Assembly: GCA_002633005.1 (NCBI GenBank)
Contig: NMRA01000474.1
Location: 275,409-339,408, forward strand
DNA length: 64,000 nt
Source: Phoronis australis
Lineage: Eukaryota; Animalia; Phoronida
Direction of reading: 5' to 3'
The notes beneath the pieces are model-generated. The model was not told the DNA's origin. It ran no database searches and saw only the letters and a program-made list of their open reading frames with translations. Positions 10,487-51,320 of the stretch are shown here, piece after piece (within the stretch, counting starts at the first letter, position 1; every line of letters starts with the position of its first letter). The position numbers and the translations under genes were made by a program.

Positions 10487-12357
10487 ACAACCACTCTTAC
10501 TAACTTGAAAAACGGCACAACTAAATACCGGGCATTATAACTGTGTACCTACATACATGTAGGTACGTCTTCCGTTCGTCAAAAACCATGTCTGGAAGTT
10601 TTTGCTTGTTGTGGAGAACATTTTATATTGCGTTTTTTAGAAGCAGATGCACCGCTTTCTATCCGGAAATCCCGATTTCAAATTCATTTATTGTGCTTTT
10701 GTTTCCTAATTTTGACCGTGACAACTTTGCAAGAGCTGTTCAAAATAACACTGTCTCTTTACTATCAATATTTCTCAGAGTACTCTTTTTATTAACATGA
10801 ATAATCGTAAACTGTGTTACAATGCCTCTGCTTTACGGTAAAACACACTACATTCTTGTATCAGGGTCACTAATTCTTCGTTTCTAATACAGGGTTAATG
10901 GTCACGGTATCACACACTATATACATGTATTGGGATCACTAATTCTTACATGTACTTTCTGATAGTGGGTTAATGGTCACTACAGTACTTGCATCCAGAG
11001 AGGATCATCTTTATGAAAATGTGTACATTGACTATTGAAGGCAGATGCTCCAGAAATATGAACAGGTGTTTACATATCTTTAATACTGTGCACGTGCACA
11101 TGTATTTACACAGAAATACCAATGGTGGATAAGCTGTAGATGACATGTCTCAACTAGATATCCTTAGAATACCAATAGCGACTAAGTCTGAAAGTGCAAA
11201 ATAATGGCAACTTAATATATTAACAACACACATAACAAGATATCTTTACACACAAAAACAAGCCACAAAACATAATCCCAATACTCATCTAAAAGCAACT
11301 ATGTTCAAAGTTAACATATTTTAGTATTGCATCGCCACCCTAGGTAGCCATCGCAATGACTTACAGTTGACCTATGCATTATGGGTACCCACTCAATTAT
11401 CGCCGCATGTTAAGAGGTTTCCAAGGCAACCCTGCAGACATTGGAAATTAAACAGCAAAAAAGACCAACACAGAGAAGTTCGGAAGTTCTGATTTGTTAA
11501 CATTTTCGTGATTTTTTTTAATCAGCAAAACTCATCTGGTGTTCTGAATTGATGAATGTAAGGTGTTTAAAAGAATATAAATCGTTTCTTTTCTCCGGTT
11601 GTTCTGACTGTACTATGATGGCAGAAATCCACTCACTCCACAAACTGACTTTGACATAGTGATAACGTTAGAGCTGTACATGGTTTGAAATATAATTAAG
11701 ACAATGGGAAGATATAACAGGCAACAACAGAATGAGCTAAAATACTGCAAACAATGTGATTACACCAGGAAAATGCAGTAATAGAACGTTGAGGCCATTC
11801 CAATTCTCAGTTGCCTAACTGTAGATCTACATGTAATGTGACATCATGGTGCGCTCAGAACTCAGTGTTCAGGCCATGTCCATGACCTGCAACCAAACAG
11901 ACAAGCTTCCATTTCCCCTTTTCTCATGCTGGTGATACATAAGTGGTACAATGCGGGGACTTTAGGCTCATCCTCGTCTTAGTAAAGTTTAAGCCGCCAT
12001 CCAAATAAAAAACAGTCAACTACATTTGTGTTCGTTTCCTAATAGCACCATTGCAAGTGAAATGATAGCTCGACTGCCATATATGACGTTACAAACAACA
12101 TGTCTATACCTATGTCTATCTCTCAATAACTAAGTCTATACATATGTACATGCACGTGTAAGCTTTTGAATATTTACCAAACCCAGTCTACACGGTTACA
12201 AACTTATTCGTAATTTTGTAAACCATACAGTATTCTGACTTTCCTCACTTAATTTCGAAAGGTTTGACCAATAGGTAATACACAGGGACTTGGTTTGACC
12301 AATAGGAAATACACAGGTTCTTGGACACTATAACAACTTGTTGTGGTAAAACAAGTT

Positions 12358-12696
12358 TCAACGTGGCCTTCCATTAGGGAAGATTTCGGTGCACAATTGG
12401 CTATCACTGACGTTGATGTCGTCGTATATGGCCTCCATGCGGATTCCTTGTTCAACGGAACGAACGGCAATTTCATCAAAAGGCACAGTGTGGATGGGTG
12501 GCACATTCGGAAAAATAAATGTTTGCATTACGGCCACGCTGGCTTCATGTTTCTCGTCAGGCACGAAACCGGGACATCCGGAACTACCTTTACCAAAGTT
12601 TGAACTGGTTTTGTAAAGTGCTCGGCGACCATCACCGAACTTCGGGAATACGTCAAACCCAAATCTAGCTTGAGACCATTGCTTTAATTCGTCATG
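12358..12696 (-). CDS. ANK-protease exon 12 (last), catalytic Ser (LYKTSSNFGKGSSGCPGF)
   Basis: tatttcag|CATGAC...; Ser codon at 12580-12582; VEQGIRMEAIYDDI resembles the FAM111 C-terminal IE.G..M.SI..DI; ends TGA at 12360-12358. Confidence 0.9.
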   Translation of the reverse strand, partial: HDELKQWSQARFGFDVFPKFGDGRRALYKTSSNFGKGSSGCPGFVPDEKHEASVAVMQTFIFPNVPPIHTVPFDEIAVRSVEQGIRMEAIYDDINVSDSQLCTEIFPNGRPR

Positions 12697-15600
12697 CTGA
12701 AATAGACAAATGTCAAATATCTCTCCTAGATAATGAAGGAAAATTCTCTGAAAATCAATAAGACAATCAGAGGAAGCAATAGGTAGAAACAAAGACACTA
12801 CCTTTGCTATGAACACCAAATCCTCTAGACTTGACATAAAGCTGAAGCCATGTATGACTGATTGTCAAAATGCAGAGCTAATCTTCAATTTGCGAAACAT
12901 TATCTGTGTCTTTGTGACCCAGGGTTGCTCTATTGAAATTAGTTCAAGCTGAAACTGCAGGTATGAAAGGGATTGAAATTATAAAACAAACTATTGTTCT
13001 GTGTAAATTGAGAGTCTGGTGAGGAATTCAATTGTTGATGGCATATCTTGGTCGCAATAGGCCTACCGTTCTGCGAAAGTCTCTTGGCTCCATTTGCACA
13101 ACACTGCAGCTGACATCAGCAACTTTGTTTTTCCCGTCAGGGTGACCAGCAAAGTGAAGTTGTGTTTCTTTGTTAAGCTTCTTAAACCTAGTAAGAGGAG
13201 GTGGTAGCGAATCCAACTTCTTGCAGCCGCTTACTGAGAGAGGAAGATCTGCTTGTAGGTCCAATTTTAAAACGGCCATGTCCAGATCATCGTTAGAGTA
13301 CACTAGTGACCCCACACAGCTGCCAGCGGCTGGCCCAAGTCCCAGCAACGATGGTTTGTCGTAATAAAAGAGCACTGCACTGTTTCTGACTGCAACGAAT
13401 AAGGTGACACGTGTACTTAAGTACTTTGTAACATGTAATGCTAACATTAACTAACTTGTGAAACATTTGAAAGTAATTTTGGTTTCAGATAACAAGTTGA
13501 GTGGTTTTAAAAGTTAATTTTGAATGTTTGCTATTTTGGCGATTGATTATGGGACACTTCTTCAAAGTTCACAACGACGTCGTGTGCCAATAAACAACAA
13601 AGACGATTTTAGGAGGGGGGGGGGGGCAGGGGNNNNNNNNNNNNNNNNNNNNNNNNNNNNNNNNNNNNNNNNNNNNNNNNNNNNNNNNNNNNNNNNNNNN
13701 NNNNNNNNNNNNNNNNNNNNNNNNNNNNNNNNNNNNNNNNNNNNNNNNNNNNNNNNNNNNNNNNNNNNNNNNNNNNNNNNNNNNNNNNNNNNNNNNNNNN
13801 NNNNNNNNNNNNNNNNNNNNNNNNNNNNNNNNNNNNNNNNNNNNNNNNNNNNNNNNNNNNNNNNNNNNNNNNNNNNNNNNNNNNNNNNNNNNNNNNNNNN
13901 NNNNNNNNNNNNNNNNNNNNNNNNNNNNNNNNNNNNNNNNNNNNNNNNNNNNNNNNNNNNNNNNNNNNNNNNNNNNNNNNNNNNNNNNNNNNNNNNNNNN
14001 NNNNNNNNNNNNNNNNNNNNNNNNNNNNNNNNNNNNNNNNNNNNNNNNNNNNNNNNNNNNNNNNNNNNNNNNNNNNNNNNNNNNNNNNNNNNNNNNNNNN
14101 NNNNNNNNNNNNNNNNNNNNNNNNNNNNNNNNNNNNNNNNNNNNNNNNNNNNNNNNNNNNNNNNNNNNNNNNNNNNNNNNNNNNNNNNNNNNNNNNNNNN
14201 NNNNNNNNNNNNNNNNNNNNNNNNNNNNNNNNNNNNNNNNNNNNNNNNNNNNNNNNNNNNNNNNNNNNNNNNNNNNNNNNNNNNNNNNNNNNNNNNNNNN
14301 NNNNNNNNNNGGGGGGAAAGAAACTGGCCAATAGTGACGCAATATTTCATGGTGACGAAAGCCGACGCAGAGATAGCACCACAGCCTCATCAACAGAAAA
14401 AACATAGAATGCCAATCCGCCATAATTGTCTAAACTTCACATATATTAAGCAAAACAACATACCAAAGCGACTATTTAAACCTGGAAGATATATTTTTCA
14501 CCAAACAGTGTTTAACAGAAAGTGCGGGATTAGTGTTTTGGTGCAGGTTTCCTGTCCATTCCCGGGGTCCCTGGTTTAAATGCCAGAGTTCGAGTTTTTT
14601 CGGGTTGTATAGCCGTTTTGAAGGCACCTGTTTAATACCGAGTTACTGTCTTGACGGAACATCATGTTATTGTTATTAAATGAAATAAGACGGTCTCTAT
14701 CACGGCCATACATATGAAAATAACCCGCAGTGACAAGTAATATCCACGAGCCTGATTTGAGGCAATCACGAAGTGTCAGTTATTCTAGACCAGCCTTAGA
14801 TGGGATCAATTTCGTAAATGTTAAAGGTGACAAAAAGTTGTTTGTTACAGAAATAGCGAGTTTGTTGCGACGTTAAGGAACAGACGATTTCACCTTTTGT
14901 CTTGAAAATATAATGACTGAGTAGGGTGTTCTTGTTTCATATCAAAAACAATAAAACATTTATTGATAATTTGAAGAACATGCAAAGTTTTTCAGAAACA
15001 GTAACAGCATGTTCAGGGAAAGCATTTAAACTTTCTTTGGGAATTTATCCGCGTTTTAGTCACGTCAAGCAGGTAATGTATTAAAGGTAGTGAGTTCGTA
15101 AAGTTTGCTTCTGCTCTTACGAAATTCCCGGCATTTTCGTACTATATCAAGCACGTGTTTAACTTAAACTAGGTTCCTAGACTTAAAATAGTAGTAGGTT
15201 TGACAAAGCGTTATTCAACCAACAGTTCACCAATAATGGTGCACGTGACACTTACGATCATCGCCCAGTTGTTCAGCAACGTGCTTATTGGTCATGACGT
15301 AGTCAGGGCCAACACGGAAACCTGAACCTGTGCCGGTTTGTCCAACAATCAGAGCTACTGATGAAAAGGCTGTTGACAAAGATGTGAGGAAATGCGCCGA
15401 CATCGTCTCTTTGTTCCAATCAAACGCCAGACCGAAACTACACTGGGTTGGCTCTTTTCTGGGACTTTGTACAGGAAAGTAGTCTGAAAGAAAAGAATTG
15501 TCAAATACCCTTTTCCAGTATCATCACTGACCTCTTCAGTTACACCAAAGTGATGTGCATGTCTCCGTTATATTGTGTCACAGGTGTAAATGTTAAAACC

Positions 15601-18600
15601 ATCGAAACTTGTATTTAAGCTCAGGGAAATGTGCTACATCAAAGTCTTGCCTTCCCAAGTGGGCTTGCTTTACCATGTGAGACAAAAGCGAGTCAGGAAG
15701 TGGCGAGGAGATGATGTATTTGAAACCAATTTAAAAACGCTTTGCCATAAACAGACATCCAAAATCTTGACGAATAAACTGTAAAAAATACGTGGTGATC
15801 AAGTTGGATCCTGTTTTAGTGGCAGGGAACTGTACTTTGAATAGTGTAATTTAGCCTGTTTTTTGTTCGCCGACGACAATTTTACAGTGGAGCAGCCACG
15901 ATTTAGAAACCACTGTGGCCTAGATTTAAAAACAAATGCGGTTCTTTTGCAATGCTGGGAAACTCCGGGTGTATTGAGATTGACTGGGAATGTGTAAGAT
16001 GCAAATAAATCGACGTGGCGGTAGTTCTTACAGATTACATTGAGCTCCATTTATCTAACCTGTTGTAAGTAATTAGGTGATTGAGAACAGAGTGAGAAAT
16101 AATATAATGCATTAGACAAAACGAGCTTTACATGTATTTGGCATGTCGTTGGCGGATTTATTTATCAAACCTGAACTACATGAAGGCATTGGTAAGCACC
16201 GAGTCAGAGCACGTTACGTGCATCTCATAAGTATTGTTTGACCAATGGGCATTCTGCATAGGCAGATTTAGAGGGGGAAAGGGGCAGGGGGCCCGCCCCC
16301 TTGGCTGACGCAGAAAAAATAAAACAGCAAGAGCGTGACGAAATATTGAGTTCATTAAATAACGTGGTAATTAACCTGGGGCTGAAACAACATTTTGATG
16401 TGTTGAGGGTTCCCCGTTTTTTAGTCCCCCAATTTGATTCTTAGCAGAACCTCCGCTTACCCGAAAGTTTGAGCCCACCCACCCCTGGTTGCGCGCATGC
16501 AATCGTGCTTTGCGCGGTTGCCCCAGACAACATGTTGATATACCAGATCCGCCACTGTTCTGATATGTACAATGAAGCTACATTCACTACAACACCATGT
16601 ATCTGAACTCGATAGACACTCAGTCTTATACAGCTGAATGTTTAGACCTAGAACAGTGAGCAATACCATATTAGAATGCAGCCGGTGAACAAGCAAAATT
16701 GATTCATGTAGCAGTGTTTACCAGTGACACAATATCCCGCTAGATGTAAGTGGTATCACATATTGTATCAACTTATTCAATACACACTAACTGAATGTAT
16801 GAAATCAACATCTCATTTAGAGCATTAGGTGAATAGTACCGGCAAAACTATGTGTATGAATCACACCGATAACAATTCATAAATAATCTTACATTCCTAC
16901 GTGGCCAATAAAAGTCAAATTTGAAGATGATTGAAATTTTCTCTCAGTTAATGATTGTTCTGCTACTAAAGGAAAATGTTATCGCAAAAAACGTAGTTCC
17001 AAAATAAAAGCGGTATGTTATCACCATAAAGTTAGGTTCTACTATTGCAGGTCAAGAGTTTAAAGCCAGTATTTACGATTATACTTCATATACCTGATGG
17101 TCTGACGTCAACACCCAGAATTCCCAGTTCATTTTTGTCTCCTTGGTGTGCTTGTATATTTATATCTACATCCCCTTTGGGCACTGTTGCCCCGGAGGAC
17201 TCGAAGTAATAAGCAAGATATCTTCCAAGGCTAAAGTGCGGGTCAGCACTGGACCTGTTTTTGGCTTCAGCACCCTCAGCAGAACTCGCACGTTGGTTTT
17301 CCTGTCTTTGCTTCATTTGAATCTATACCCAAGTCAAAAACGACACAACCGCATTAACTAATTTATTTTATAACTGATGATGCTACTCTCTGCTCTGAAC
17401 ATCTATGTAATTCCTGAGTTAGCAATGGATAAAATGTAAATAAAAAACATGGTATTATTAAAAAATTATTAACAAACATGGTCACTTGACGAGTATCGTT
17501 TTCATCAGGTAAATAATGATTATTTAAAGAGTATTCAATGGTTAACAACACACATCCGTTTGAACCTAATTCTCAAGACAAAACTGACAAGTTATACTGT
17601 ACCTCAAGGAACCCCTTTAAGGTTTTAATATTTTCGGCGGCGGTCTTGTCAAAAAACACGCTACATTCTCTTCCACAAACATCATAAGCTGTTTCGCCTT
17701 CCTGAAAATTAACAAAATAGAGGTAAAGAATTAAAAAGTACATATAATTTTTCAGAAAACACGCAAAATGAGCATTTTTTTGATCTCGTGGTTCTTGGAT
17801 TCCGGCATGTTTCCGTCTGTATTTGTTCAGGGTCAAAATTTTAACCAAGTTTCAACGTGTGCCTCTTCTTTTCTCAAGAGTTACAGTTAATCTGGGTATA
17901 GGTCTTGACTTGGTGTGGTCGAATAGTGACACTCAGTGTCAGTTGTTTTACACCTGCGTCTGCGTTGCCTCTGTAAATGTTGGAAGAAGTGTCTCATTTC
18001 AAAGAACATTATACACGTGTTAGATGGGGTTCCAGTCGGGAGGTGTACTCCATAGGATTAGCAAACTGAGGTATGAACTTGTTAGATGGGGTTCCAGTAG
18101 AGAGGTGTACTCCATGGGATTAGCAAACTGAGGTATGAACGTGTTAGATGGGGTTCCAGTCGGGAGGTGTACTCCATAGGATTAGCAAACTGAGGTATGA
18201 ACTTGCTGACAACTTGTCCAGGACATCTTTCACTGTAGTCTACTGAGATGACATCAAAAGGCAGCATAAACTGACTGGGGTGCGGATGTCACCATGGCGA
18301 CCACGTGGTAAAAATGCTTTTATTTTTTGTTCAAACATTGACTTTTACCAATATTTGAACTCTCGCGTACATGTATACACGTAGATACTGTGCATTCCTG
18401 AACCTCCGTGGAAAACGGTTGGAAGTTACTTTAGACTTCTGTTGTTTACTGTCAGCTTGCATAATAACAACCTCCACCCAGCAGTAATGACCAACATCGT
18501 CCGATACAAATACATTTTTCATGGAAATTGTTAGGTACGCATCCAAAGTGTCTTCATGCTTCAAGGAAGGCTATTTACCGTGTTAAAGATGCGTGTTTGG

Positions 18601-21600
18601 GTAAAGGAAAAGGTATATAATCCTTAGCTATGGGGATTTAAACAGGTAATCAAATTTTCTAATAATTTATAACGCCCTTTTCCTTTATGGTCAGTACTTG
18701 GTTAACTAAATATTCATCACCTAATCAAATGACAACACCTAATGAATTACTGAATGTTGCACACAAAGCATCGTTAAAAGTACATTTCAACCCTAACAGA
18801 CGTTAATGTAGAAAAGCGGACATGTTGAATATTAGATAACATTTTTTAAAATAAAGGAAATGGTTAAGTACCGAAAGGATTTGATGATTCTATTACGTCA
18901 AACATTTGAGACCATAAATTGTAACGCGATTAAATATTTTTATTACAAAACATTTCCCATTGGCGATTGTTCCTGGTTTTACGCGTTTACTAAGTTTTAA
19001 GACTTCCTCATTCTCAGCAGAAAACATTATTTTCAAACTTGCTGAAGAATGATGCTAGGTCCAAGATCCGATAATCTCAAAATTTGAAACCAACGAATTG
19101 CACTACTCACTACATCGTTGAAATGTTAACAAACTTGTCAAAATTATTACAATTTGGTTTATTTCCAGTTCAAATACAAAAACTAATGTTGAAAATCATG
19201 CCCCTTTCATCTTTTCTGGAGATATCAAAGTTTTTGTCCAAACATTTACTTTTTGGGGTGTTTTGATTTCCGTGGAATCGGTTGTCCAGCCGACTTTTTT
19301 TACCAAAACGATAGTTGCATCAGGCGTTTGCTTCCTTGAGTCGTAGTAGTACCCGAAATAAGATGCTCTCATGAGAGGTGAACTTAATAAATTATCGTCA
19401 GATTAAAATGTTTAAGAAATTTGGACCTTTGTAATTATGTCATCAGGTATCTCGTCTAAATCCACGTCACGCATAGTGGTCTTTAAGTTTAACAAACTTT
19501 CTCATTCCAATCTACGACATAACGCGCTTTTAACCAAGTCCACCTATGAAGTCTTCGCAACATTTTTTTCCAAAAATAAATTACATTATTTTTTGAATCG
19601 GTGTTTTGTGTAAAACTATATCGATAGTCTTGTCATTGGGGATTTGTCTAATTCATATAATACATATATAGTATCTTTTCGAGTCCTATCAAGGCTAAAC
19701 GTGGTTTTCACAGCCTCAGTCTTGGTTGTTTGCTGCAGCATGACTTGAGATTTATACAGGTTGGATAGATCGCAGATATATTTATATACATGTATTTCAA
19801 AGTGATCAACTATTGCTGTCGTTGTCGCTGTAGTTTCTCAAATGCGTATCCACATTTTCCATGAGGTGCAACGGTTCCTTTGTGTTTTGTCGTTTCCTAT
19901 AAATTGTCCACGTTTTAGCTTACCTAGCAAACAAAATCAGAGCTCAAGGGTCTTTTCGTTATCTATTAATTATAGTTTCCCGCTTCAAAGCCATGTCAGA
20001 AACCCTATTGTTAAGGCTAAATGTCCGTCGCTTTACATTTATCAAATGTGTAAGAACAGATTTATGCACACGTTTCCGTGGTCCTGTCAAACGTTGTTAA
20101 AAGAAGTTGCCTATATATAGAAGATCCACTCACCAGAGTAATGCATTTTAAAAGGCTCCACAGTCTCACAAACACTGTACCATAGCTACAGTGTAACATA
20201 CATGTGCAACGGATCTCGTTGTATACATCCGGTCAAAGCTAAAGGCGTCTCTCCAATGGCAGAAATGTATTTTCGGAACGATGTTAGAATTGTTCTTTGG
20301 ACAGCAAAAAAATGGAAACAGATTAGGGATACTTGCACTCTGTAGTTGTAGTTCATTTCCAATATCTCAGATGAATTGATAAATAATCGAACAAAATATC
20401 TATTAACTACTGCTCACAAAACTGAACAATATGGTCCAAATGCCGAGTTCTTTCAATCTCCAGTTTTGTCGTTTTCTGATAAGGTTCCACATCACTTATT
20501 TAGGTTGTCATTATGCTGTTTCATAAAGGAGATGTTTGGACTGGTACGTTTGACATGGGTAATTTCTGATAACGTGGCCACCCACGCACATTAAGCGAAG
20601 ACCAATTAAAATTTGCCAAACAGGCACTACGAAAAAATAAGAACGATGAGAAAATGTGTTAGCTTTTGAACAAACTGATGAATTACATTCTCAAGCTCAA
20701 GTTTTTGCAACTAACGGATAAAACTGATTGACACAACACGAAGATGTGATTTGAACGAAAATAAAATATGGGGTGATATAGAAAGCGTGTTGTGTTTCGG
20801 ACAACTGAATACACCAACAGTCAGAAACAAATCAGATCGCATATTTATACACGTTTTATAAGAATCTGAAACAGACCCTGGATTTAGAGTGGATCAGAAA
20901 CGATCACTGTGCGCAAATTAGTCACACAGCGCTCTGCTTTTTCTGGGGTCTAACTTATGCAGACTTCTGGAACAGCGAAAACCGCACTTGTCTTTTCAAA
21001 AGGCTGGACTTTGACTAACTCACGCCCAACATTACTCCACCACAGAATATATCAAACAAAACATGGCAGGAACTTATTACACAGTAGTGCAATTGCATTA
21101 CAAACAAACCAAAAAATTACACGACTTTGAAATTTGGTTTTTAAAACAGTCGCTTTTTAAAGCAACCCTGACTAAAAAGTACTTGTAGGAAAATCAAAAT
21201 GTGTGCCTGTGTTGGGCGCCTTCCTCCGTGGTTGGTCTGTTTTTAGTTTGTGTACCGATTGTACGATCAGACGAGCAGCCTTGGTTTCGCTGCGTGTTCT
21301 GGGAAGGTACTTGCATTGAAGAAGTGACTCTATGTAACTCCAGTAAAGAGGTAGATCAGTTTTAATGAGATATTTATTATGAGTGAACAATTCCTCGAAA
21401 TCAATATTCATTTAAAACACATTTATTGCAGCATTAACTAAACTTGGAGTACAACACTCTTGAGATACCTTGTTTACGGCAGTCACGTCGCAGCTGCCAT
21501 TATGGACCAGCAGTTCCACGACTGCTGCCTGTCCTGTCTGGGAAGCTAGATGTACGGGTGTGTTTCCATCCTACAGTAAACGAACAAATATGATAGAATG

Positions 21601-24600
21601 CTGGTCAGCATCATACATAGCAAAGTGGGTGCGTCAACAGAGAGTCACGCTTAACACCTTTCAGAACTTCGCCTTCAGTTGCATACTTACTGTATGAAGT
21701 GGGTGACTCAACAGAGCACGACTACAACTGACATTTAAACTCAGACAAAAATGAGCGCAATTTCCTAAATGCTGATCTGTTGTAGTCACGCGACTGAAAA
21801 GATGATTTTAAATATCACAATTTGATGTTATATATTACAACAGAGCCACGATCATTTAGTGAGTGCTATGGTAATGCAAGTAAAGAACAAGTGCTCAATG
21901 TACAACTCCAGGTGAAGTGAAAACTGTTTCTAATAACATAATGTCACGAGCACGTCACGTCACGTGCGCGTCACTTCACGTGCCGTGAATTCAACGTTTA
22001 CAAACAAAATTACAATTTGTGATTATTTAATTAAAACACCCAATAATTCAACCTCGTCACGTATTGTGTGTTCATCAACCTGTGTGTCGTTAATTACCTG
22101 AGTACGGACATCCACTGTAGCGTTGTGTTCCACAAGACACTTCACTATCTGTGTATAACCACACCCTGCTGCACAGTGCAGCGGTGTCCGGCCCACCTAT
22201 GTAATATATAATGGAGATGTGTGAACGAACGATCAACGTTTAGAGCAAATTAACAAACACGGGGGAAAGTGAACTTGTAAGGTGACATAAATGAAACATT
22301 ACTGACCTCTCTAAGACGCAACAATACGTGTAATGATTTCAACAGGGAAATGTTGAGTTTAAGAACAAAACAACAGAGCGTGTTCAGTGTTCCGTCTCGT
22401 TACACGCTGATAACACACAGCAAGTAATTGTGCGCTGTAAAGTGTTGGACAATCAAAATAACGTAGAAAATATATCTGAAACTAAATGAGGCGATCCAGA
22501 TCGTCTGAAGGAAATTATTGTTTGACGAAATGTAGAATATATATAGGTAAATAAAACAACAATAATGAATCAACTGAAATGTTCGGATGCAGCTTTGACA
22601 GTTCTCTGTTGGAAAGCAGACGACATTTATTTTGACATTGTTTAAAGACATAAAATTGTGAAAAATATCAACAAAATTTGTTCTTCAATAGTTTTAATCA
22701 TCTCTTGTGTAAACAACTAATTCAACCAAACAACCTGTGTGTCATTAATTACCTGAGTACGGACATCCACTGTAGCGTTGTGTTCCACAAGACACTTCAC
22801 TGTCTGTGTATGACCACACCGTGCTGCCCAGTGCAGCGGTGTCCAGCCCCTCTATGTAATATATAATGGAGATGTGTGAATGGACGATCAACGTTTAGAG
22901 CAAACTAACATACACGGGGGAAAGTGAACTTGTAAGGTGACATAAATGACACATTACTGACCTCTCTAAGACGCTACAATACTTGTAATGATTTCAACAG
23001 GGAAATGTTGAGTTTAAGAGCAAAACAACAGAGCCTGTTCTGTGTTCCCTGTCTCGTTACAGGCCGGTAACACACAGCAAGTAATTGTGCGCTGTAAAGT
23101 GTTGGACAATCAAAATAACGTAGAAAATAAATCTGAAACTAAATGAGGCGATCCAGATCGACTGAAGAAAACTATTGTTTGACGAAATGTAGAATATATA
23201 TAGGTAAATAAAACAACAATAATGGATCAACTGAAATGTTCAGGTGCAGCTTTGGCAGTTCTCTGTTGGAAAGCAGACGATATTTATTTTGACATTGTTT
23301 AAAGACATAAAATTGTGAAAAATATCAACAAAATTTGTTCTTCAATAGTTTTAATCATCTCTTGTGTAAACAACTAGTTCAACTAAACAACCTGTGTGTC
23401 ATTAATTACCTGATCACGGATATCCACTGTAGCGTTGTGTTCCACAAGACACTTCACTATCTGTGTATGACCACTCCATGCTGCACTGTGCAGCGGTGTG
23501 AAGCCCCACACCTATGTAATATATAATGGAGACGTGTGAATGGACGATCAACGTTTAGAGCAAACTAACATACACGGGGCAAAGTAAACTTGTAAGGTGA
23601 CATAAATGAAACATTACTGACCCCTCTAAGACGCTACAATACTTGTAATGATCACTCAAGTTTTACAGGTGATTTTAAAACCTTGAAGTAAGAACAGAAC
23701 ATGGTGTAGAAGACAACTGCCAGAAATTACTGAGCGCCGCCATAACTTCACAGTGACCCCTCCATGTTGTGTTCATACACCGGTTTAATGGCTTCCTGTT
23801 CAATATAAAGTTGTAATGTTGAATGGACGCTTACCATTAAGAATAGAAAAATATCAACGTTAAGTCGCCAAATATATTGTTGACACAATTCAAACCTCAC
23901 TGTTTCTTAAGATGCATGTACCGGGTACAGATTGAAAATACATGTCGAAATCTTGAGAAATAAAAAGTGTATATACACACAACATGTTTAGTTAAACTTC
24001 AGATAGTTTACAGCTTTGTAACAAAGATATCACTGTCTTAATTATAAAATCGTCTCAAGTAGTTTCTATTACCCCGTCTTGCTTGTTGACGATAGCGCCT
24101 GCTTCACACAAAACACGCGCCACCTCTGTATGTCCCAGCCCTGCTGCACTGTGTAGTGTTGTCCAGCCCTGCAGAAACAATGAACAAGTTATAGCAAACT
24201 TCACAATCATTAACTTCACCGTGAATCTTAATTACTCATCATGGAAACGTTGAAATAACACATTTGCACACAAAATTACTAAATCTACTCTCTGCTTACC
24301 ACATAATATATCAGTTGTCGTTGGAATGGATCATCAATTTTAGAGAACAAGGTTACGTCGCTCATGTAGAACGTTTGTTAGTTTCAGTAATAATCCTCAG
24401 ATTAAAGACATGACATGTTCTTTAAAAATATGGACACTTTTATAAAAGTCCGACTTACGACTGGTTGTAGCTAAGACAAGCTATCACTGTTATTGTCATT
24501 AACGTGACCTTGATATTTAAACTTAAAAATTTATCATTTTAAGAGATCAATTTTTCGAGAGATCAAGGCAAAAGTATTGTTAGTGTATATGAAAACTGCA

Positions 24601-30600: not shown

Positions 30601-33600
30601 TTCCCCAAGTGGTGCGCGTTAAAACCAGCATTCAATATATTAACGAGATAAATTAACCCTTTCATCAAATCAGTTGGTCTATATCATGTCATGTACTTGA
30701 AACTGGTTAATTTTGGATGGGTTTTTCAATATCTTCAAAATTGGTTGCATTCTGATTTTTTCGTATTTGCTCGACCTATGTTAATATGCTTGTGCAATGA
30801 TATTATATCGTGGTTGCAGAATGGTTTGAGACAACTGTTGTGTCATTGCTTTACCAGAGTGATAATAAAATCTTACTTAAATGACAGACAGAGCATCTAC
30901 TATGCTGAAGAATGGGATACCGTAGCAGGAGGTCGCGTCACCTAGGGGGAACTCTTATAACGAAACTGCATTTTAGGAATGAACCAGTTGTGCATGAAAG
31001 AAATTGGAAATTAATACGCCCAGATCTTGAATGCAGCAAACCGGAACACTATTATCTACGACAACAAAAGTGATTGCACCGACTATGTAACGAATAGAAT
31101 AAGTAAAATAACATAAAAGATGTGCCTCGATCCGCCGAACACTCAGTTATTCAACGAAATTCCACTAACAGGAACCTATCCTACTATTTGAAACTTGGAT
31201 TATGGTACCCAATTAGCAAACAATTGAGAATCACTGCTGTGCTGTAACACTTCAAAATTCTTTCTTTAAATTGGGCATTGAATGAAATGTACAATTGCAT
31301 CACTTTCTATAAATTGCAATAAATTACCAACTTCGCCTTGACTTGATGAATGAGAAGAGTACCGTCTCTCACCTGTACGAAACTGTTCACGGGATACGAT
31401 AATAATATGGAAAATGGGTATAATGTTAGATAATCAATCCGCGTTTGACACAGTTTCACAAGACCCCTTCTTGTACAAAGTTTTCTCTTATCCAATATCG
31501 GACACTCTGCACACACTCCGCACTTTATACTTGTAAATTAACTCTATCCATCCAATCGGGTAGTAGGACTAGACAGTGTGTTTTCAAAACCCTCACTCCC
31601 CGTCTTTGTTTACGTAGGGGTATCGAAAGCTGATGTCCTATTTCTACTCTTCATCAATCATGACAGACATGAGCTCCAAAACCATCCATGACATAATCAA
31701 TGGTAAAACGTCTGATACAGCCGAATTTTATACAAATCTCAAAAACATCCCAAAAGCCTTTCTTTCCAACTACAGTTGAAACTTGGTTCCACTCAGGGCT
31801 CGTAATAAGCACATGGAAGCTTCAAGGCTGAGATAAAGTGTTGATCTTACATTTTCTAGATGCCTCCATTTCAAACTAACACAATCTTTATCTGAATCCG
31901 CATGGTGAAATTATTCCCCAAAACATTTGTAAAGAAATCTAGTCATGATAGTTGATGATGAAATGTCATTTGAACCACAGTGTCAAATCCGTGTGCAAAA
32001 AAATCAAATTCTAATCAACCTACTGAAATTCGTTCATGCAAGTTTCAAATCGTTTGGTACCTACAAACGATTTGAACATTTTGACTATGGTGAGATAATC
32101 CACCAAGTCGTGTAGATAGTGCGAGACCTTTGCTTGAGCTACACAAAGTATCATAAAAAGCTTGCAATAACCAATGCTGGTGTCATGAAAGGGTCTAACA
32201 CAGTAAGTGGTCCAAAATGTCATTGTGTTGAAAGGTATTAGCAGCTCAAGTTCTTAACAAAGTAAAGAATGTATTACGAAATACAAAAGTCAAAAACATC
32301 ACTCGATCTAGGTACAGTTCAAGAACGCTAGTACATGCTATGCCCTTCGCGAGATTACGCCGTGTATTTTAAACAAGACCATGTGAATTTGGACAGTTTT
32401 TCCAACCCGCAAAACAGCTACACTGAGAACTCTACTAGGGTTTCTCTTGTCGCACATTTTTCTTATTTCCACCATCTTACAGTCGAGCAACTAGTAAATC
32501 CACAATTACCAAGGCATAGATGCAGGTCACATCCTCTCATAAAAATGATATGCCGTAATTAAAATTTCATTTTCACAAATGCTTTTGCGAAAAGAATAAA
32601 ATTATTCTTCCTACAGTCGTATACCGCCGTACAATAACAAAGGAAATCTGTCAACAGATTTAGGTCAAGATTATTGCTAAACTCTGAAAAATTCAGACAC
32701 ACTTTTCAAAATATGTCTTCCCGGTGCGCCTGCGGATCTGTCCAAATTGGTCTGTTTCTAATGCTTTCGTAGATCGTTTGCGTGATCCTTGTTGCGGATC
32801 CTGGAGACGGTCGACGATATAACAGATAAAATTAATAGTATTCCACGGCAGATTGGTAAATACATCTTGTTAGTAACTGATTCTCATGACTAGCCCAATG
32901 GCGTCTATTAAGTGCTACTTAGTCAATTTCTCTATAGTATGTAACCTGTCTTATAATTGCTGTTCGTAGGACTCGGTCATGATTTCATTGTATTTTTCTC
33001 ACCGACATACGTGTGCTGTTAAGGCAAGTTAAGAAAAAACGTCTGTTTTATATCTAAACTTCCGTAGCTATACATGTACTTGTATGTGAACATTTTGTTA
33101 TTACTGTTTTGTATTGTTACCACGATTTTGACATGTCGCTTTGGTTAACAGTTTACAGTGTTCATACATGTATATACTATTCAACATAAAATTAGGAAGG
33201 CAATGCCAATCGTGATGAAGTTCTTAAGACAATGGATGTGTAGAATTGTTTTTAACAAGGTGCATTTCAAGTCAATGATGATCAGACAAGTGTTCATGTG
33301 TAAATACTCACCGACCGACCCAGCGCTTGGTCCACATCCCAACCACGGTTTACATACTCCAGTAGAGTAGAACAGTCACCTTTTTTGGCGGCTGTTCTAA
33401 CCTGAAAATAATAACAAATAAATTTTAAATCGAATGGTGTACATTCATTACCATTACGAACTCAATTTTACAAAAAAGTGCTCCTTAGATGATATGAACA
33501 TTGAGGGACTAGGGTCGGGGTTGTTCCTGGGTCTTGATAATGCAGACCATATGAAATACTCTTCGCAAATTTTGGCTCTTGTTCATATTAAAGCTTCCTA

Positions 33601-36600
33601 ATAACCACACATTTATACCAACTTTATGAACGAGAAACACCACAAGTGTCGTCCTCTTCCTTCTGACCCGTTGTTGATTGTGTCCACGTTGACCTTTTTT
33701 CCATTTTGACCTACATCGTACCGTGACCATTTTACCATCAATATCATTTCAACCTCTTATTATGTTTAAGTTCAGTTGTCCAAAACGTGCTGCAATCTGC
33801 AGTAATCTGCCCCCTCAAACATTGTTTGGATAAGGTATGAGTATCATTTAGGGTGTATAGTCTGGAGTTAATAATTATTTGTTCATCAACGTAGTGTCTC
33901 CCAGTGTTTGCTCATTGAGGCATCGGCTAGGATGTATGTATTGGGATTTTCGTTGCGTCATCTCAAGAACGTGCAATAGCGAAGGAAGACATGTCGGATG
34001 GAAGGACAAAGGTGATGTTGTCTCAAACTTCTCCGCATTTAGTGTTCGCTAAGATACTCATTTCTTATTACCCAATTATTGCTCTGATCTGGAATTTCGC
34101 TGTTTGACGTTTACCTCCCATTTCGATTCGTACGTTTTGTGAATGACTGTAGGCACATAATAGTCGATAACTTCCCATATAACGTAAAATTCGATATAAA
34201 AGCAGTGAGATGTAACTTGGTGTACCTTTTGTACCATAGGTTGTCTGCACTTCATTTTTGTACATTTTTGCAAACTTGCTTTTAACGTTACTCCATTCAA
34301 GGTGATTTTTAGTCTATCGAATATTACACATTTATTTACTGTGGTTCCTGTACTTTTGTTTGAATTCTTCCATACTATTTCCGTTATTAACTATCATTGT
34401 TAATAAGTAACATTTACCAACCTGGCCCTCGCCTTTTTACTGAGAACTAAATTCAGATAACACCACTATTATTTCTGAATCAAATTTAAAAAATCGTTGA
34501 TCAATGCTGATGTAAAAAAATAAGTTGTCTTTGTTGGGCACATCAAGATTAATTACATTCCCTCAGAATATATTTTCCAATGAAGACGACTTCACTAGCT
34601 GTAACATTTACGGCACATTCTCACTTCTCCGAGTTTATTCATAGTCTGAATGAGTATCATGCAAACAATACATACAGCATTGGTTCCTGGGAGACGTGAA
34701 TTTATATTGTGATAATGAATAATTGAACTCAATCTTGCACCTTGTAGCATGACTATAACTTTATCTTAACACTCTTCTTCAACATACGTACACCACTCAG
34801 ATGATGAACAGACATACAGTTGGCACACCATCAGGTTCTACCCTTTGTTTCGAGAGTCAATCATAGGACTTATCGTGTTATCTCGGTAAGTTTTGACAAG
34901 TTACCTCAAGAGGGCGCTCCAGGTATCATTTGACTAGATTACATCCAAAGTTGAAATCCAGCGCTATAAATGAGATCTATTTAACAATGGTTATACAAAT
35001 TCTTTGTTGATAACCAAACAAAGAAAAGGGCAAAGTGAGCGTGTTAGTCGGTACCTGAAGGTCACGTGGTTCAAGCGAAAGCCAAGTGTTCGGTCAATGG
35101 CATGACAAGATTTTTTTACCAAAATTAAGACAGAAAAAATACATATTTGCTGAAGAAAAGTACAATAATAAAGTTCCAATTTAAGAATTTTAGCGGAGCG
35201 TTCGGTTCAGGTTGTTTGTGTGATAACGCCGTGTTGTAAACTACAAGATTGTCTTTTGTACATCGTTCCTAGAACGAGCGTATCATAAAATCAAGAATGA
35301 GACATTTCTTTACTGAAGTGAACGAGCAAGAATACGAAAAGAGCGCAACCTTTTCTTTGAAAAAAGCAGTACTTGTTGGTGGTTGCGAGAATTCACTTCA
35401 CGTGTCGCTCAGGTGATATTTTCCTAACCACCAGCGGCTAAACCACAATCAAGGTCCATATTCGAGAAGTGACTGTGTTACGGTATAAAATAATTTTGTC
35501 TGGTCACTTACCAAATGTCAACTGAATCTCATATGCAAAGAGTTATTTAGTTGTGCAAATTGAAAAAATAATCATCAAAATTGGACAATGTTTGAGAAAT
35601 GCATGCTTGCTTTTGTCTATGAATTCCATGCATTTTCAGCGTTACGAGTGGCCATTTTAAAAATTGCAATTTTCAACTGTCAGCAGTAGAAAGGAAATTT
35701 ATTTTAATAAGCAAGTAATTGTTTTGACATGACTGGGAATGACTTAAGTCAATTTCGAAATCACTTGGACGAAGTTGCGCTAAATCGTTGAGAAATGATG
35801 GAGTTCATCATAAAACAGGCACTGGTTACGAAAATTGTGATATCGGCGATTCTAACCCCCACCTACTGTAAAGAGGGTTAAAAACTAAAGTTCACATTCT
35901 GTAATACAAAGAACTGTAGAATAAGTTAGCCAAGGCAACACAGCAAATTATTCAATATCTAAACAAACCAAAAGTTTGGATATTTACTGGGTTCTGCTAT
36001 GGTGAAAATGGGCCAAAAAGGCTAACAAAGTGTAGTGTACGTACCCCCATGTAGAATTCAATAACACAAATGGTCATTGCAAATGAAATTATTGCCTTTT
36101 AAATAACAACATGGTGGTTATTATCACCAAAGAAAAAATAATTGGCCATACAACATTATGTTACCATGTGACGCAGAAACAGTGATGTAGTGTATGTACC
36201 CCGTTTTGTAGCGTATGTACCCCCATGTTTACAAATGTCATGAAATTAAAATATCACTTGGAAAGTAAGCAACATTGGTCATGGACAGTTTCCTTCCTTA
36301 AACATGTTAGGTTAAAAGGGTGTTTATTGCAAATACATTTGTTTTGAGTGAAATATTAGCATTTCTGTAGTGTACATAACCCCATATTTCAATTTGTGCC
36401 CATTTTCAAAGTATGGCAAATATGGGTATTAATGCTGTGCTTTTTATTTTTTCTCTTTGAATTGATTAAGTAAATCAACTAACTCTCAGTAGATTCTTAG
36501 TACATAGTCATAAACCTGACATGTCATTGAAAGGTAGTGTACGTACCCCTGTGTAGCGTACGTAACCCGGTGTGAACAAATACCGTGAAACAAAACTATT

Positions 36601-39600
36601 ACATGGTAAGTATGCAACATTTGTCACACAAAGTTCCCTCCATTAAAAATGCTAGGATAAAAGTGTCTTAATTACAAATACATTTGTTTTGAGTGAAATA
36701 TTTGCATTTGTGTAGTGTACGTACCCATATATTTTAACATGTGCCTTTTTTCAAAGAATGACAGACAGATACACACATTTATGCTGTACTTTTTGCTCTT
36801 TTCTCCTTGAATAGATTTGGTAAGTGAACTAACTCTCAGTAGATCCAAAGTATTTTTAAAAACCTGACAAGTCATTGAAATGTAGTGTACGTACGCCCTC
36901 CAACCTCTGTGATATAACGTATTGCCCACAAGTATTTTTACATATTGCTGTTCTCATAAACAATACTGATATTTCCAAAATGCATCCAGTCTGACAAAAC
37001 AAAACAAAAACAATGCACATTGTTAAATACTGGGGAAACAAAATGCCACACAGGTCCTGGCTAGTAACATCCTAAAAAACATGTCATGAGACAACTGATG
37101 TTGCAGAGGCAGGTTCTCTACATGTATCTCTCAACACAACTTGCAACAAAACAACTAGTAGAGGCAGTGCAAAATTCAAGATCAACCCATACATTTGTAC
37201 CTTAGTCAAAATTTGACGTTAAGTGACTATGCGTAGTGGACGTCCACCCCCCCCCCCCCAACCAGTACCATTTTCTACTGTTTACAAGTTGAACACTCGG
37301 CCTAACTTGTTTGACCAACTGGTGAATGTGTTGAAAACTAGGCTTATAGCACCAATAAGGTTTTTGAAAAAAAATAGTTACCTGTCATTTTCTTTGTGTA
37401 AGAATCATATTGCAAGAGATGAAGTTTTAAGACATGCAATCATCAAGAACAACTCGATCAGCAAGGTAATAACTTTTTTCTTACTTTAGTATGTGATACT
37501 TCTTCAGTTTGATCAATAACTTATTAAATTAACAGCTACCTTACGAGTTTTTGCATGATAGAAGTGGTTTGTGACCACAAGTTGTAGTGTACGTACACTT
37601 TTATTCAACTGCGATGCATTAGGCCATAAAATTTTATTCGGTGGTTCTTGTGCAAAATATTTTAGATTACAAATCTGGAATGATGGTACTTTAAAATAAC
37701 CCAGCTTTCACAGTAATATGACAACCTTCATTTTTCACCAAAAGTGGCCACCGAATATGGACCTTGATTGTGATTTGCCCGCCGGATATTTCGTGCATAG
37801 ATTTTAACAATGTGAAAAAAGTCACATGTATTGGTAAGCAGGGATAAATCGCATTGCATTGAAAACTTCCTCACACTCCAGGATCTAAAGAAATAGCACA
37901 GACATGTCGCGTGCGCAACTACATGCACAAAGACATCGCAAAACATGAACCTGATGCATTTGACCCGGTAACAGAGAGATAAGGTTCTAAGTATACAGCA
38001 TCATATTTGAAAGAAAACAATTTGAAATATCGCCCCGGGACAGTGCGCTTGTAAACACTGTTGCCATGGACAGTGTGTACTCGTGAGTGAGTCTACATGC
38101 AGTGCTTTTCTTGGCTTGTATGGTCAGACAAAAGGTAGTGACTTTAACAATGGTCAAGCTATTTATATAACATGACCTTGGGACAACAGAGACGGTTGTC
38201 TTAACCAATGTTTCGTGACTAAGGTCTTGCTGTTTAGCGTCCTATAGCATTACCGAACTTTACCCAGCTGAAAATATAGGAACACTGAGGCTGGTATTCT
38301 CAGAAGTGAACGTAGAATGCAGTGAATTAACGGTTCACTATGTAATGCGCACATAGACCTACACTCAACAACGCACAAATGCCATGAACCGTGAATACTT
38401 GTGAGTCTACATTCACAGCACTTTTCTTGAGCTTGACAAAAGGCGTTCGGTGACAAAGCTATTTGAAGAACACGACCTTAGTGAAAATATAGACGGTCAC
38501 CTTAACCAGTCTCGTTTACAACACACCTGGCGAAAACTGTGACATCACTGAAGTCCTTACCCCGAAGTGAACGTATACTCTAGAAGTTAACGCTCCACTA
38601 CCGCAACATGCGTATATAGTTATTCTCCCATCTACATTTTTAGAATGTAAGGATAGCTTCAGCCTGACATTATATTTGCAATGACAATATGGAGGGGAGT
38701 CCGAGTCCAGGGCCCGGTCTCCAATCTTTTTACTCGAAATGAAACTCGAAATTAGGTTTGTCATTTTCTACTCTACTTTTGGGCGAACTCAAGATAAGCG
38801 TCTATTATTCTATGCTCGAGTACACAATAACTTATGTAGATAATTTATTGCCCTTAGGTCACAGTTTGTAAACCCAATATTAAAGCAATAAGGTCGAGTT
38901 TGAACTCGAAATTTCGAGTTTTTACTCGAGTTTGTAGCACGAATATAAGGGTCTTCAAGGGCAAACTTGAACTAGAAACTCCTATGCATAAACTATAATG
39001 TATTCGAGCACAGTCTGATAACCAATTACCTTAAGCTCGCACAAAAGGAGCAGAGAAATTGCCAAAAATAGTTTCGAGTTCGTTTCGAGTACAAAGATTA
39101 GAGACCGGGCCTAGGTGAGGGCTACACTGATCTTGTTGTTTCCAGACAAATCATAACAGCTCAAACCACACCTTCTAAACACACGTTGGCCACCAAATAG
39201 AATTTTTGAGTTAAAACAAGAAAAAAATGGCGACCAGCTTGTGAAATAAGTGCATAAACCGGTGGAAGACATAAAATGTCAGGCTTGAGGAAGGGAGTGA
39301 TTGATGGTTGGTTTGGTGTGACAACAATGGTTTGGTCTGTGCCAACAATCGAGTTTTATAAATGTCCATTGTTAAAAGGCATGCATGCAACCAAACGTGC
39401 AGAGGTAGACTTTTATTATTTTCTATGAAGTGGTACTCACCCAGGCTCCGCCCCTCCTCTGCGGTGATAGTGGGAAATTCCTAGTGCGACTGAATTAAGC
39501 CATTTTGCGACAGTACAAGGGTGTAACTTAAAATGTCTTTTGCCAACAACATTGACATAAATGTGGGTCTCAAAACGTTCATTAAACCATTAAGTTGATT

Positions 39601-39813
39601 GTAAAGTCACGCTGATCGTCGACATAACGCCGCGGGTTAATCAATCAAACTTCAAAAGCCCGCCCTAAATAAACATATTCAGCATACAAGATTTCAACGA
39701 CTATGACAGGGGAGGGGCGAAAAGATGATTGAAATGATTTCTGAGAAAACTCTCACCTTTTCCAATTCTGCCTCATCGAGTTGTAAACGACATGATTCCT
39801 TGTTAGATGCCAT
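12358..39813 (-). CDS. Ankyrin-repeat / FAM111-like trypsin-fold serine protease fusion protein, 12 coding exons, about 620 aa
   Basis: Exons 39813-39757, 33401-33312, 24168-24073, 23511-23410, 22851-22753, 22196-22098, 21570-21469, 17701-17603, 17322-17094, 15483-15256, 13389-13067, 12696-12358. All introns are GT-AG with compatible phases; total 1863 nt = 620 codons + TGA, no internal stop. Ankyrin G.TPLH.AA..GH..IV..L repeats precede protease motifs TNKHV, DLDMAVL, GHPDG, GSSG.PGF and VEQG..MEAI. Confidence 0.88.
13067..13389 (-). CDS. ANK-protease exon 11, catalytic Asp (SNDDLDMAVLKL) and GHPDGKNKVADVSC
   Basis: cgttgcag| ... ACG|gtaggc; 323 nt, phase 1 to 0; LD.A.L.L and GHP.G..K..D..C resemble FAM111 proteases. 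Confidence 0.9.
13633..14310. other. Assembly gap (678 N) flanked by G-runs, inside intron 10 of the ANK-protease gene
   Basis: Run of N with poly-G on both flanks. Confidence 0.99.
15256..15483 (-). CDS. ANK-protease exon 10, protease N-terminal part with catalytic His (SVALIVGQTGTGSGFRVGPDYVMTNKHVAEQL)
   Basis: ttctttcag| ... C|gtaagt; 228 nt, phase 1-1; G.GF.V....VMTN.HV trypsin-like motif, His codon at 15281-15283. Confidence 0.9.
16257..16557. mobile_element. Short hAT-like non-autonomous element (MITE)
   Basis: Left end CATAGGCAGATTTAGAGGGGG and right end AGATCCGCCACTG (reverse complement CAGTGGCGGATCT); GC-rich subterminal blocks; no clean TSD. Confidence 0.5.
17094..17322 (-). CDS. 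ANK-protease exon 9, linker (IQMKQRQENQRASSAEG...LGVDVRPS)
   Basis: ggtatag| ... G|gtatat; 229 nt, phase 0 to 1, open frame; bridges exons 8 and 10 in phase. Confidence 0.75.
17603..17701 (-). CDS. ANK-protease exon 8, C-cap ankyrin-like repeat (EGETAYDVCGRECSVFFDKTAAENIKTLKGFLE)
   Basis: taattttcag| ... GAG|gtacag; 99 nt, phase 0-0; the NK|EGETAYD junction completes a typical terminal repeat. Confidence 0.85.
18017..18204. repeat. Tandem repeat, 62-bp unit x3
   Basis: GTTAGATGGGGTTCCAGTCGGGAGGTGTACTCCATAGGATTAGCAAACTGAGGTATGAAC recurs at 18019, 18081 and 18143. Confidence 0.95.
21469..21570 (-). CDS. ANK-protease exon 7, ankyrin repeat (DGNTPVHLASQTGQAAVVELLVHNGSCDVTAVNK)
   Basis: tttactgtag| ... 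AAG|gtatct; 102 nt, phase 0-0. Confidence 0.9.
22098..22196 (-). CDS. ANK-protease exon 6, ankyrin repeat (VGRTPLHCAAGCGYTQIVKCLVEHNATVDVRTQ)
   Basis: tacatag| ... CAG|gtaatt; 99 nt, phase 0-0. Confidence 0.9.
22753..22851 (-). CDS. ANK-protease exon 5, ankyrin repeat (RGWTPLHWAARCGHTQTVKCLVEHNATVDVRTQ)
   Basis: tacatag| ... CAG|gtaatt; 99 nt, phase 0-0. Confidence 0.9.
23410..23511 (-). CDS. ANK-protease exon 4, ankyrin repeat (VWGFTPLHSAAWSGHTQIVKCLVEHNATVDIRDQ)
   Basis: tacatag| ... CAG|gtaatt; 102 nt, phase 0-0. Confidence 0.9.
24073..24168 (-). CDS. ANK-protease exon 3, ankyrin repeat (GWTTLHSAAGLGHTEVARVLCEAGAIVNKQDG)
   Basis: tttctgcag| ... |gtaata; 96 nt, phase 0-0; canonical ankyrin consensus. 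Confidence 0.9.
30900..33150 (+). mobile_element. Highly decayed non-LTR retrotransposon (CR1/L2-group) RT remnant in intron 2, antisense to the host gene
   Basis: Fragmentary motifs in the expected order: GTYPTI (~31170), AFDTVSQ (31441-31461), LFLLFIN (~31640), DDEMSFE..VKSVCKKI (~31953-32008). Boundaries approximate. Confidence 0.55.
33312..33401 (-). CDS. ANK-protease exon 2, N-cap ankyrin-like repeat (VRTAAKKGDCSTLLEYVNRGWDVDQALGRS)
   Basis: tattttcag| ... |gtgagt; 90 nt, phase 0-0; AA..GD...L.....G.DV ankyrin pattern. Confidence 0.8.
36030..36900. repeat. Diverged ~347-bp direct repeat (about 2 copies) studded with GTAGTGTACGTACCC motifs; probable DNA-transposon subterminal region
   Basis: Approx. 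36188-36533 aligns with 36534-36881. The motif recurs at about 36032, 36188, 36204, 36367, 36534, 36552, 36712, 36882 and 37584. Confidence 0.7.
38711..39111. mobile_element. PIF/Harbinger-type MITE (401 bp) in intron 1
   Basis: About 43-bp TIRs GGCCCGGTCTCCAATCTTTTTACTCGAAATGAAACTCGAAATTA vs TAGTTTCGAGTTCGTTTCGAGTACAAAGATTAGAGACCGGGCC; 3-bp flanks CAG/TAG. Confidence 0.75.
39472..39481 (+). promoter_or_regulatory. Consensus NF-kB site GGGAAATTCC in intron 1, next to a GC box (39448-39454)
   Basis: Exact match to GGGRNWYYCC, about 280 bp into intron 1; motif evidence only. Confidence 0.35.
39757..39813 (-). CDS. ANK-protease exon 1 (MASNKESCRLQLDEAELEK)
   Basis: ATG in accATGG context; ends AAG|gtgaga in phase 0 and reads directly into VRTAAKKG of exon 2. 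Confidence 0.7.
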
Positions 39814-40669: not shown

Positions 40670-40960
40670 CTTTTTAGCAGCACAGCCTAGTTGTCGTAAT
40701 GGGCGATCGACGTCCGCGGTCGATATAGTCTTCAAACAGCTAAGCTGGTTTTCTTAGTTTTCACTTTCAAAAAGCTGATTACCGTAAGCTACTTTGTGTC
40801 ACGACAGGGTCAAATGCAGTAGAAAGAAATGTGTACTGCCTTAGTTGACCGGGAAAGTATCCCACAGCCGTGTACCTTGCCTACTAAAATCTGACAAAAA
40901 TTCTCATTGAAGCCGGGGTTTGAACACGGTCTCTTCAACGAAGTATTTCTGCCTCGTCCA
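40670..40960 (-). mobile_element. Probable tRNA-derived SINE
   Basis: Minus strand has a B-box-like GTTCAAACC within GACCGTGTTCAAACCCCGGC (~40911-40931) and ends GGCTGTGCTGCTAAAAAGA, a LINE-like 3' tail; the A box is unclear. Confidence 0.4.
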
Positions 40961-50466: not shown

Positions 50467-50514
50467 CTGAAACACAAGACAGTGACACTCTACAGCATTC
50501 AGAGCAAGTGAACT

Positions 50515-51255: not shown

Positions 51256-51320
51256 TTCGGACAGAACATTTCACTTCAAGAATTTGGTGTCATTATCATA
51301 CGAAAAAGTAAAGGTTATAC

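Follow-up and report, generated by a model that had tools for sequence, protein, structure and literature searches.

Animals have few intracellular trypsin-fold proteases. One of them, FAM111A, acts as a virus restriction factor and is encoded by a disease gene, and why its family arose is an open question. Viruses encode inhibitors of FAM111A, and SV40 and poxvirus mutants without them are restricted by the protein (PMC9798293); it is active as a dimer formed through the alpha-1 helix (PMC10920703), and kills cells when over-active (PMC7534640). FAM111A-like proteins lacking ubiquitin-like domains (UBLs) are present in soft coral and lancelet, and the available part of the report describing them makes no mention of ankyrin repeats (PMC9798293). 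Here, we describe a gene of Phoronis australis, located on the minus strand of a 64,000-nucleotide stretch of contig NMRA01000474.1 (assembly GCA_002633005.1, positions 275,409 to 339,408; hereafter, the window), whose predicted product carries an ankyrin array in front of a FAM111-type protease. The gene probably encodes a fast-evolving non-self-recognition protease, with a predicted role in intracellular defence. What appears to be new is that recent ankyrin exon copies attached to a protease of this type show amino-acid-only change, concentrated on the putative binding face. No description of an ankyrin-FAM111 fusion was found in the literature listings searched, in agreement with a preliminary description of this DNA, which had not recognized the architecture as a characterized animal family; automatic database annotations may exist.

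Several other described systems share features with this gene. Fungal NLRs whose ankyrin repeats are highly conserved (PMC4986451) resemble it in their near-identical internal repeats, in the variation of repeat number, in changes located on the inner helix and beta-hairpin face, and, in some cases, in the presence of a protease effector (Peptidase S8), but in the phoronid gene, which is an animal one, the repeats are N-terminal, the effector is of the trypsin fold, and there is no NACHT/NB-ARC switch. Brown-algal ROCO proteins with shuffling leucine-rich repeat (LRR) exons, proposed to be immune receptors (PMC11378527), likewise duplicate their exons in tandem, each exon encoding a single repeat and keeping the same phase, and have selected sites on the concave face; here, however, the repeats are ankyrin rather than LRR, the exon phase is 0 rather than 2, and a protease takes the place of the ROC-COR GTPase. 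In bacterial conflict systems (PMC8195603), a trypsin-like peptidase is fused to recognition or adaptor modules, whereas the present gene is a spliced animal gene with no close bacterial relative found, and its weak PADLOC match covers the His strand only. As judged from its predicted domains, the architecture resembles that of repeat-sensor/effector proteins but is not that of an NLR, for there is no nucleoside triphosphatase (NTPase) domain: exons 2-12 gave no Pfam match to NACHT or NB-ARC, and the only domain-free stretch is a linker of ca. 90 residues.

Splicing of the window DNA, which is animal-type with long introns, yields the gene of 12 exons and 620 amino acids that the preliminary description had proposed (minus strand, 1863 nucleotides with the stop); all 11 introns are GT..AG. 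To follow its transcription, four data sets were used: a contig set with 0.32 of the sampled words (X1), and three raw RNA runs from one study with the same species label (X2, X3, and X4), whose reads provide the evidence. Since the RNA runs bear no treatment labels, differences in depth among X2-X4 were set aside. Reads were mapped at two levels, 90% and 96% likeness, the counts for introns 1-3 being taken from the 96% level. The exons are listed below, with the reads across exact intron joins given in the order X2/X3/X4.

39757..39813, minus strand: exon 1, coding part, residues 1-19, start ATG; intron 1 join, 0/2/36 reads and 1 X1 contig
33312..33401, minus strand: exon 2, residues 20-49, putative N-terminal ankyrin cap (no Pfam match); intron 2 join, 0/0/18 reads
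24073..24168, minus strand: exon 3, residues 50-81, ankyrin repeat 1; Pfam Ank 29.3 bits; intron 3 join, 0/0/7 reads
23410..23511, minus strand: exon 4, residues 82-115, ankyrin repeat 2, tandem copy; Pfam Ank 39.9 bits; repeat unit
22753..22851, minus strand: exon 5, residues 116-148, ankyrin repeat 3, tandem copy; Pfam Ank 43.4 bits
22098..22196, minus strand: exon 6, residues 149-181, ankyrin repeat 4, tandem copy; Pfam Ank 38.7 bits; repeat unit
21469..21570, minus strand: exon 7, residues 182-215, ankyrin repeat 5; Pfam Ank 36.9 bits; intron 7 join, 9/7/13 reads
17603..17701, minus strand: exon 8, residues 216-248, putative C-terminal ankyrin cap; intron 8 join, 16/9/14 reads
17094..17322, minus strand: exon 9, residues 249-324, linker, no family match above cut-off; intron 9 join, 8/13/13 reads
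15256..15483, minus strand: exon 10, residues 325-400, with candidate alpha-1 helix (354-367), first protease strands, and catalytic His392; weak trypsin-like matches and FAM111 columns; intron 10 join, 20/26/84 reads
13067..13389, minus strand: exon 11, residues 401-508, with catalytic Asp437 and the GHP-G-K-C motif; Atlas trypsin clusters and FAM111 motifs; intron 11 join, 21/10/12 reads
12358..12696, minus strand: exon 12, coding part, residues 509-620 and stop, with catalytic Ser547 and the FAM111-type C-terminal motif; Atlas serine protease clusters

The protease domain is of the FAM111 type on its sequence motifs, because five motifs of a FAM111A alignment occur in it in order, at positions 388, 436, 482, 536, and 590 of the protein. 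The motifs were read off an alignment of human, mouse, snake, and zebrafish FAM111A (supplement of PMC10920703). None of 20,000 shuffled controls contained two or more of them, and bacterial HtrA proteins (three out of three) carried only the His motif, i.e., one of the five. The FAM111-like protease proposed earlier is supported. The shared columns are SV, F-x-Y, LD-x-A-x-L, GHP-x-G-x-x-K..C, Y..F..G-x-SG-x-P-x-F, and E-x-G..M..I; ca. 30 of 49 invariant FAM111A columns are kept (counted by eye), and the C-terminal stretch E590-G592-M595-I598-I602-E612-F614 aligns with human FAM111A without gaps. The coordinates previously given for the catalytic residues map correctly to H392 (15281-15283), D437 (13280-13282), and S547 (12580-12582). 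Their order, His-Asp-Ser, and the nucleophile motif GSSGCP around S547, which fits G-x-S-G-x-P, are those of the trypsin fold (clan PA, S1), and the oxyanion residue Gly545 is kept. As in FAM111A and FAM111B (PDB 8S9K; PMC10920703 and PMC9798293), the protease is C-terminal, lacks an evident secretion signal, and has a long Asp-Ser spacing (110 residues here versus 102 in FAM111). An amphipathic stretch at 354-367, seen by eye before the first strand, is the candidate equivalent of alpha-1: L357, L360, S361, S366, and V367 stand (again by eye) where FAM111A has V347, L350, V351 (Ser in mouse), S356, and V357, while K348 of FAM111A is not kept. The pair F341-G342 is located 51 residues ahead of the catalytic His, as is F334-G335 in FAM111A; this likeness involves compensating gaps and is weak.

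Unlike in FAM111A, an ankyrin array stands in place of the PIP box (found in placental mammals) and two UBLs, as the preliminary description had maintained: the N-terminal half of the protein is ankyrin, and simple pattern scans revealed neither a PIP box nor a basic nuclear-signal pattern. Without UBL and PIP domains, the predicted protein is not a vertebrate-type FAM111A. Further differences are that the protease is spread over three exons, that its S1-pocket residues are changed, and that it is beyond the reach of single-exon phmmer. Since the peak 19-residue hydropathy is only 1.43 (in the protease) and the N-terminus is polar, an intracellular location, without an evident signal peptide or membrane segment, is predicted, as had been suggested earlier.

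Pfam Ank scored above cut-off (21.1 bits) on exons 3-7, five of the 12 stretches scanned, while Trypsin_2, expected along with ankyrin in the preliminary description, gave co-linear but sub-threshold matches on exons 10 and 11. Exon 10 had weak MarP and PADLOC trypsin-like matches, below cut-off where one is given. The nearest Atlas clusters were Trypsin/Trypsin_2 for exon 11 (best 0.91) and serine protease/trypsin for exon 12 (0.92-0.94), and the trypsin-like clusters nearest to the protease exons were bacterial. The features of HtrA/DegP (S1C) are absent: there was no Pfam match to PDZ and no GNSGGP, and the HtrA profile aligned over the His strand only. NAL1_N and Nal1_C gave no Pfam match at E up to 1 in single-exon searches, whose sensitivity is limited. 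An Ntox25 match on exon 10 was rejected as weak, below cut-off, and overlapping a trypsin strand, and an alignment in which an HtrA scaffold served to place the protease exons was discarded, all three exons being stacked on each other. An AlphaFold model of exon 12 alone, a single exon, had a pLDDT of 37 and was unusable.

The array reads as five full ankyrin repeats and two caps. Of the "about 7" repeats noted previously, the five in exons 3-7 stand as full repeats, while exons 2 and 8, which have no Pfam Ank match, look like capping half-repeats. Exons 2-8 are all in phase 0, with one repeat each, and the best PDB matches of exon 5 are ankyrins and designed ankyrin repeat proteins (DARPins). 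By sequence likeness, exons 4-6 are recent tandem copies, arranged in exon-plus-intron units of ca. 655 bp that are 91-96% alike. An assembly artefact as their source was considered and judged unlikely, because reads connect near-identical ankyrin exons head to tail. Pairwise codon lists for exons 4-6 revealed a minimum of 15 base changes, none clearly synonymous, and an extra codon in exon 4; the probability of there being no synonymous change among 15 comes to 0.015 under one assumed synonymous share and to 0.006 under another. Binding positions were defined as 2, 3, 5, 10, 13, and 33, the randomized positions of a published ankyrin library (PMC4308713). Variable bases in exons 4-6 made up 8 of 18 at library positions versus 6 of 81 at the remaining ones (p = 4e-4 by Fisher test); another set of positions gave p = 5e-6, but the published positions make for a fairer test. 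In the comparison of exons 5 and 6, 5 of 18 library bases differed, compared to 24 of 556 bases in the upstream introns (p = 0.001), while framework differences (2/81) were at the level of the introns. When read by hand, loose read ends at 22759 (agreement 0.82-0.88) contained more residue variants at these turn positions. Taken from three copies, these data suggest that amino-acid-changing substitutions are concentrated on the binding face of the duplicated repeats. The large introns of the gene revealed no further, hidden ankyrin exon, and the window no second copy of the gene.

Each of the three raw RNA runs contained transcripts of the gene. The junctions of eight of the 11 introns (1, 2, 3, and 7-11) were seen in RNA at exact sites, which confirms that part of the gene model; introns 4 and 5 were represented, among the matches listed, only by joins whose letters differ, and none of the matches listed contained the intron 6 join. 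The listed intron-junction reads all had the first mate on the plus strand and therefore fit minus-strand RNA. All five introns between exon 7, which holds the last full ankyrin repeat, and the final protease exon (introns 7-11) were seen in reads. Ankyrin and protease parts are thereby connected through successive junctions, no single read covering both. The preliminary description had named separate ankyrin and protease transcripts as an outcome that would speak against it; this outcome is removed because exon 7 is chained to the protease by junction reads. Reads also connect exon 10 to exon 11 across an assembly gap at 13633-14310 (678 N), and thus no main-form exon is concealed there; another gap is located at 43307-43725 (419 N).

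At least two versions of the gene are transcribed. Exon 7 was found spliced to exon-5-like ends, and joints stepping back 97, 99, or 753 bases correspond to transcripts whose ankyrin exons are strung together differently or that carry extra repeat copies. The majority of reads were of 90-95% likeness (995/1583, 921/1505, and 2338/3558 in the three runs), some of these being intronic repeats. Loose ends in X4 at 17309 (93 reads), 15447 (70), 13389 (96), and 13355 (168) mark versions with replaced segments; the one at 13355 lies in a loop that matches, by eye, the dimer-sensing loop L4 of FAM111A, and those at 15447 and 17309 lie in the linker and C-cap. The version diverging at 13389 retains the catalytic His, as read by hand. 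A conserved gene of a single version, in keeping with the second outcome named against the earlier proposal, is not what was found, there being divergent RNA versions and no relative in any protein search. Deep sense-strand reads were observed over intron 3 (23512-24072) at 90% likeness (X4 depth of 204 in bin 23669-24115), with few at 96%. Read-through from exon 3 hits a stop five codons into the intron, and related copies may therefore yield ankyrin-only products without a protease.

A recognition role is suggested because the duplicated repeats show amino-acid-only change at the binding face. In the mechanism that we propose, the concave ankyrin face would bind a foreign (viral or parasite) protein; binding would concentrate the protease, which would then pair through the helix equivalent to FAM111A alpha-1 and become active; the paired protease would cut the bound protein or a host protein, and the invader would be restricted or the cell killed. 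Exon duplication and exchange would renew binding specificity. The array could equally be an activation sensor or a targeting arm on an always-active enzyme. A more speculative extension, to which we give some credence but which we would not expect to hold on present data, is that the exon-unit ankyrins, duplicated, swapped, diversified, and wired to a FAM111 protease, form a natural DARPin-like library, i.e., a programmable family of anti-pathogen proteases. In that case, FAM111 would go back to an ancient immune effector of modular build, and the form that acts at vertebrate replication forks would be a derived special case.

A number of points weigh against the non-self-recognition reading. 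The selection test is small, with three copies and 15 changes, for which p values of 0.006-0.015 for the lack of synonymous change are modest, and relaxed constraint accounts for part of the clustering, because in every ankyrin family the most variable positions are those that bind. A young, unstable array drifting under relaxed constraint, the pattern being due to chance and tolerant surface positions, is nevertheless quite improbable: relaxed constraint does not account for the excess over introns at library positions (5/18 against 24/556), which would not come from drift alone, and the reading frame, splice sites, and catalytic triad are intact. The divergent versions may be either paralogues or deep alleles. 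Three of the FAM111 motifs are defined as strictly as the four orthologues permit, while two were loosened after the window protein had been seen, and no FAM111 protein was returned by single-exon phmmer, tblastn, or Atlas searches. Finally, FAM111A acts at replication forks in a housekeeping role. Together with the retention of a protease without UBLs in invertebrate FAM111-like proteins (PMC9798293) and with expression in every raw run, this would fit a housekeeping or regulatory protease whose ankyrin array is an adaptor for host substrates, replacing the PIP box and UBLs, for example in the clearing of protein obstacles on DNA. We consider such a role unlikely in view of the recently duplicated exons, whose binding-face changes all alter amino acids, the divergent versions in RNA, and the lack of a PIP box or basic nuclear-signal pattern in simple scans.

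The substrate pocket provides another such point. Residues F537, H556, and G559 of FAM111A line or adjoin its chymotrypsin-like S1 pocket, and the protein cleaves itself at Phe (PMC10920703). In the phoronid protein, these columns, invariant in the four orthologues, are changed, as judged by eye (F537 to G543, H556 to Q566, and G559 to I569), and specificity, and possibly activity, would therefore differ from those of FAM111A. By analogy with elastase, a branched residue in the last of these columns would be predicted to favour small P1 residues. The changed pocket and post-serine residues, and the existence of virus-encoded FAM111A inhibitors (PMC9798293), could point to a weak or inactive protease that serves as bait or scaffold, for instance as a decoy for viral protease inhibitors; with His, Asp, Ser, and Gly545 all kept, and the His kept also in the read version diverging at 13389, this is very improbable. 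Conflict within the species, i.e., allorecognition, gamete recognition, or control of selfish elements, might likewise drive the repeat variation, the same signature in fungal NLRs being tied to non-self recognition (PMC4986451). The lack of an evident signal peptide or membrane segment is a poor fit to cell-surface recognition, and the known conflict role of FAM111A is antiviral (PMC9798293), making an origin of this kind about as unlikely as a housekeeping one.

Searches for relatives of the protease exons were conducted in several collections. The search for longer proteins with single exons yielded no relatives among 67 candidates for exon 12, 44 for exon 10, and 101 for exon 11. Metagenome scans contained no relative of the protease exons, and a genome scan returned three HtrA loci only, alike over the His strand alone. 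In phmmer searches of the PDB, exons 9, 11, and 12 had no match, exon 10 had weak Spl/MarP matches, and FAM111A chains were not returned. A bacterial TIG-repeat protein, the one match in the representative search with exon 11, was rejected as spurious. Plasmid tblastn gave matches at E 4-8 only, which were rejected as well.

If the non-self-recognition reading is true, a sensor-plus-protease design without an NTPase switch would be added to animal immunity. A diversifying N-terminal binding array suggests that non-self recognition drove at least part of the FAM111 family. The ankyrin-FAM111 gene offers a direct test of ligand-induced pairing as a protease switch, and its predicted product may be a natural model for targeted proteases.

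Other observations concern the ends of the gene and its surroundings. The upstream end of exon 1 is an acceptor near 39877; at 39879, 83 X4 reads run into another upstream exon, which was not found within the window. That exon, as read by hand, contains an in-frame stop, in agreement with a start of translation at the ATG at 39813. At the other end, read depth indicates that the 3' untranslated region runs on below 11600; it contains a 62-nucleotide unit (12261-12322) whose copies are more numerous in reads than in the window. Intron 1 contains, at 38711-39111, an element of ca. 400 bp that resembles a miniature inverted-repeat transposable element, with 33-nucleotide terminal inverted repeats that are 91% complementary and very deep coverage on both strands. 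A 68-codon open stretch in intron 7 (19199-19402, minus strand) lies in AT-rich, decayed coding-like DNA and has a weak PHROG match (E 0.033). The upstream neighbour gene (46588-51400, minus strand) has leucine-rich-repeat-like exons and appears unrelated; we take it to be FBXL6-like, two of its exons being without a supporting Pfam match. Open stretches at 1-934 (minus strand), two of which were checked and had no Pfam match, resemble a decayed retrotransposon polyprotein. Minisatellites are located at 18010-18205, 40950-41354, 46295-46554, and 50509-51256.

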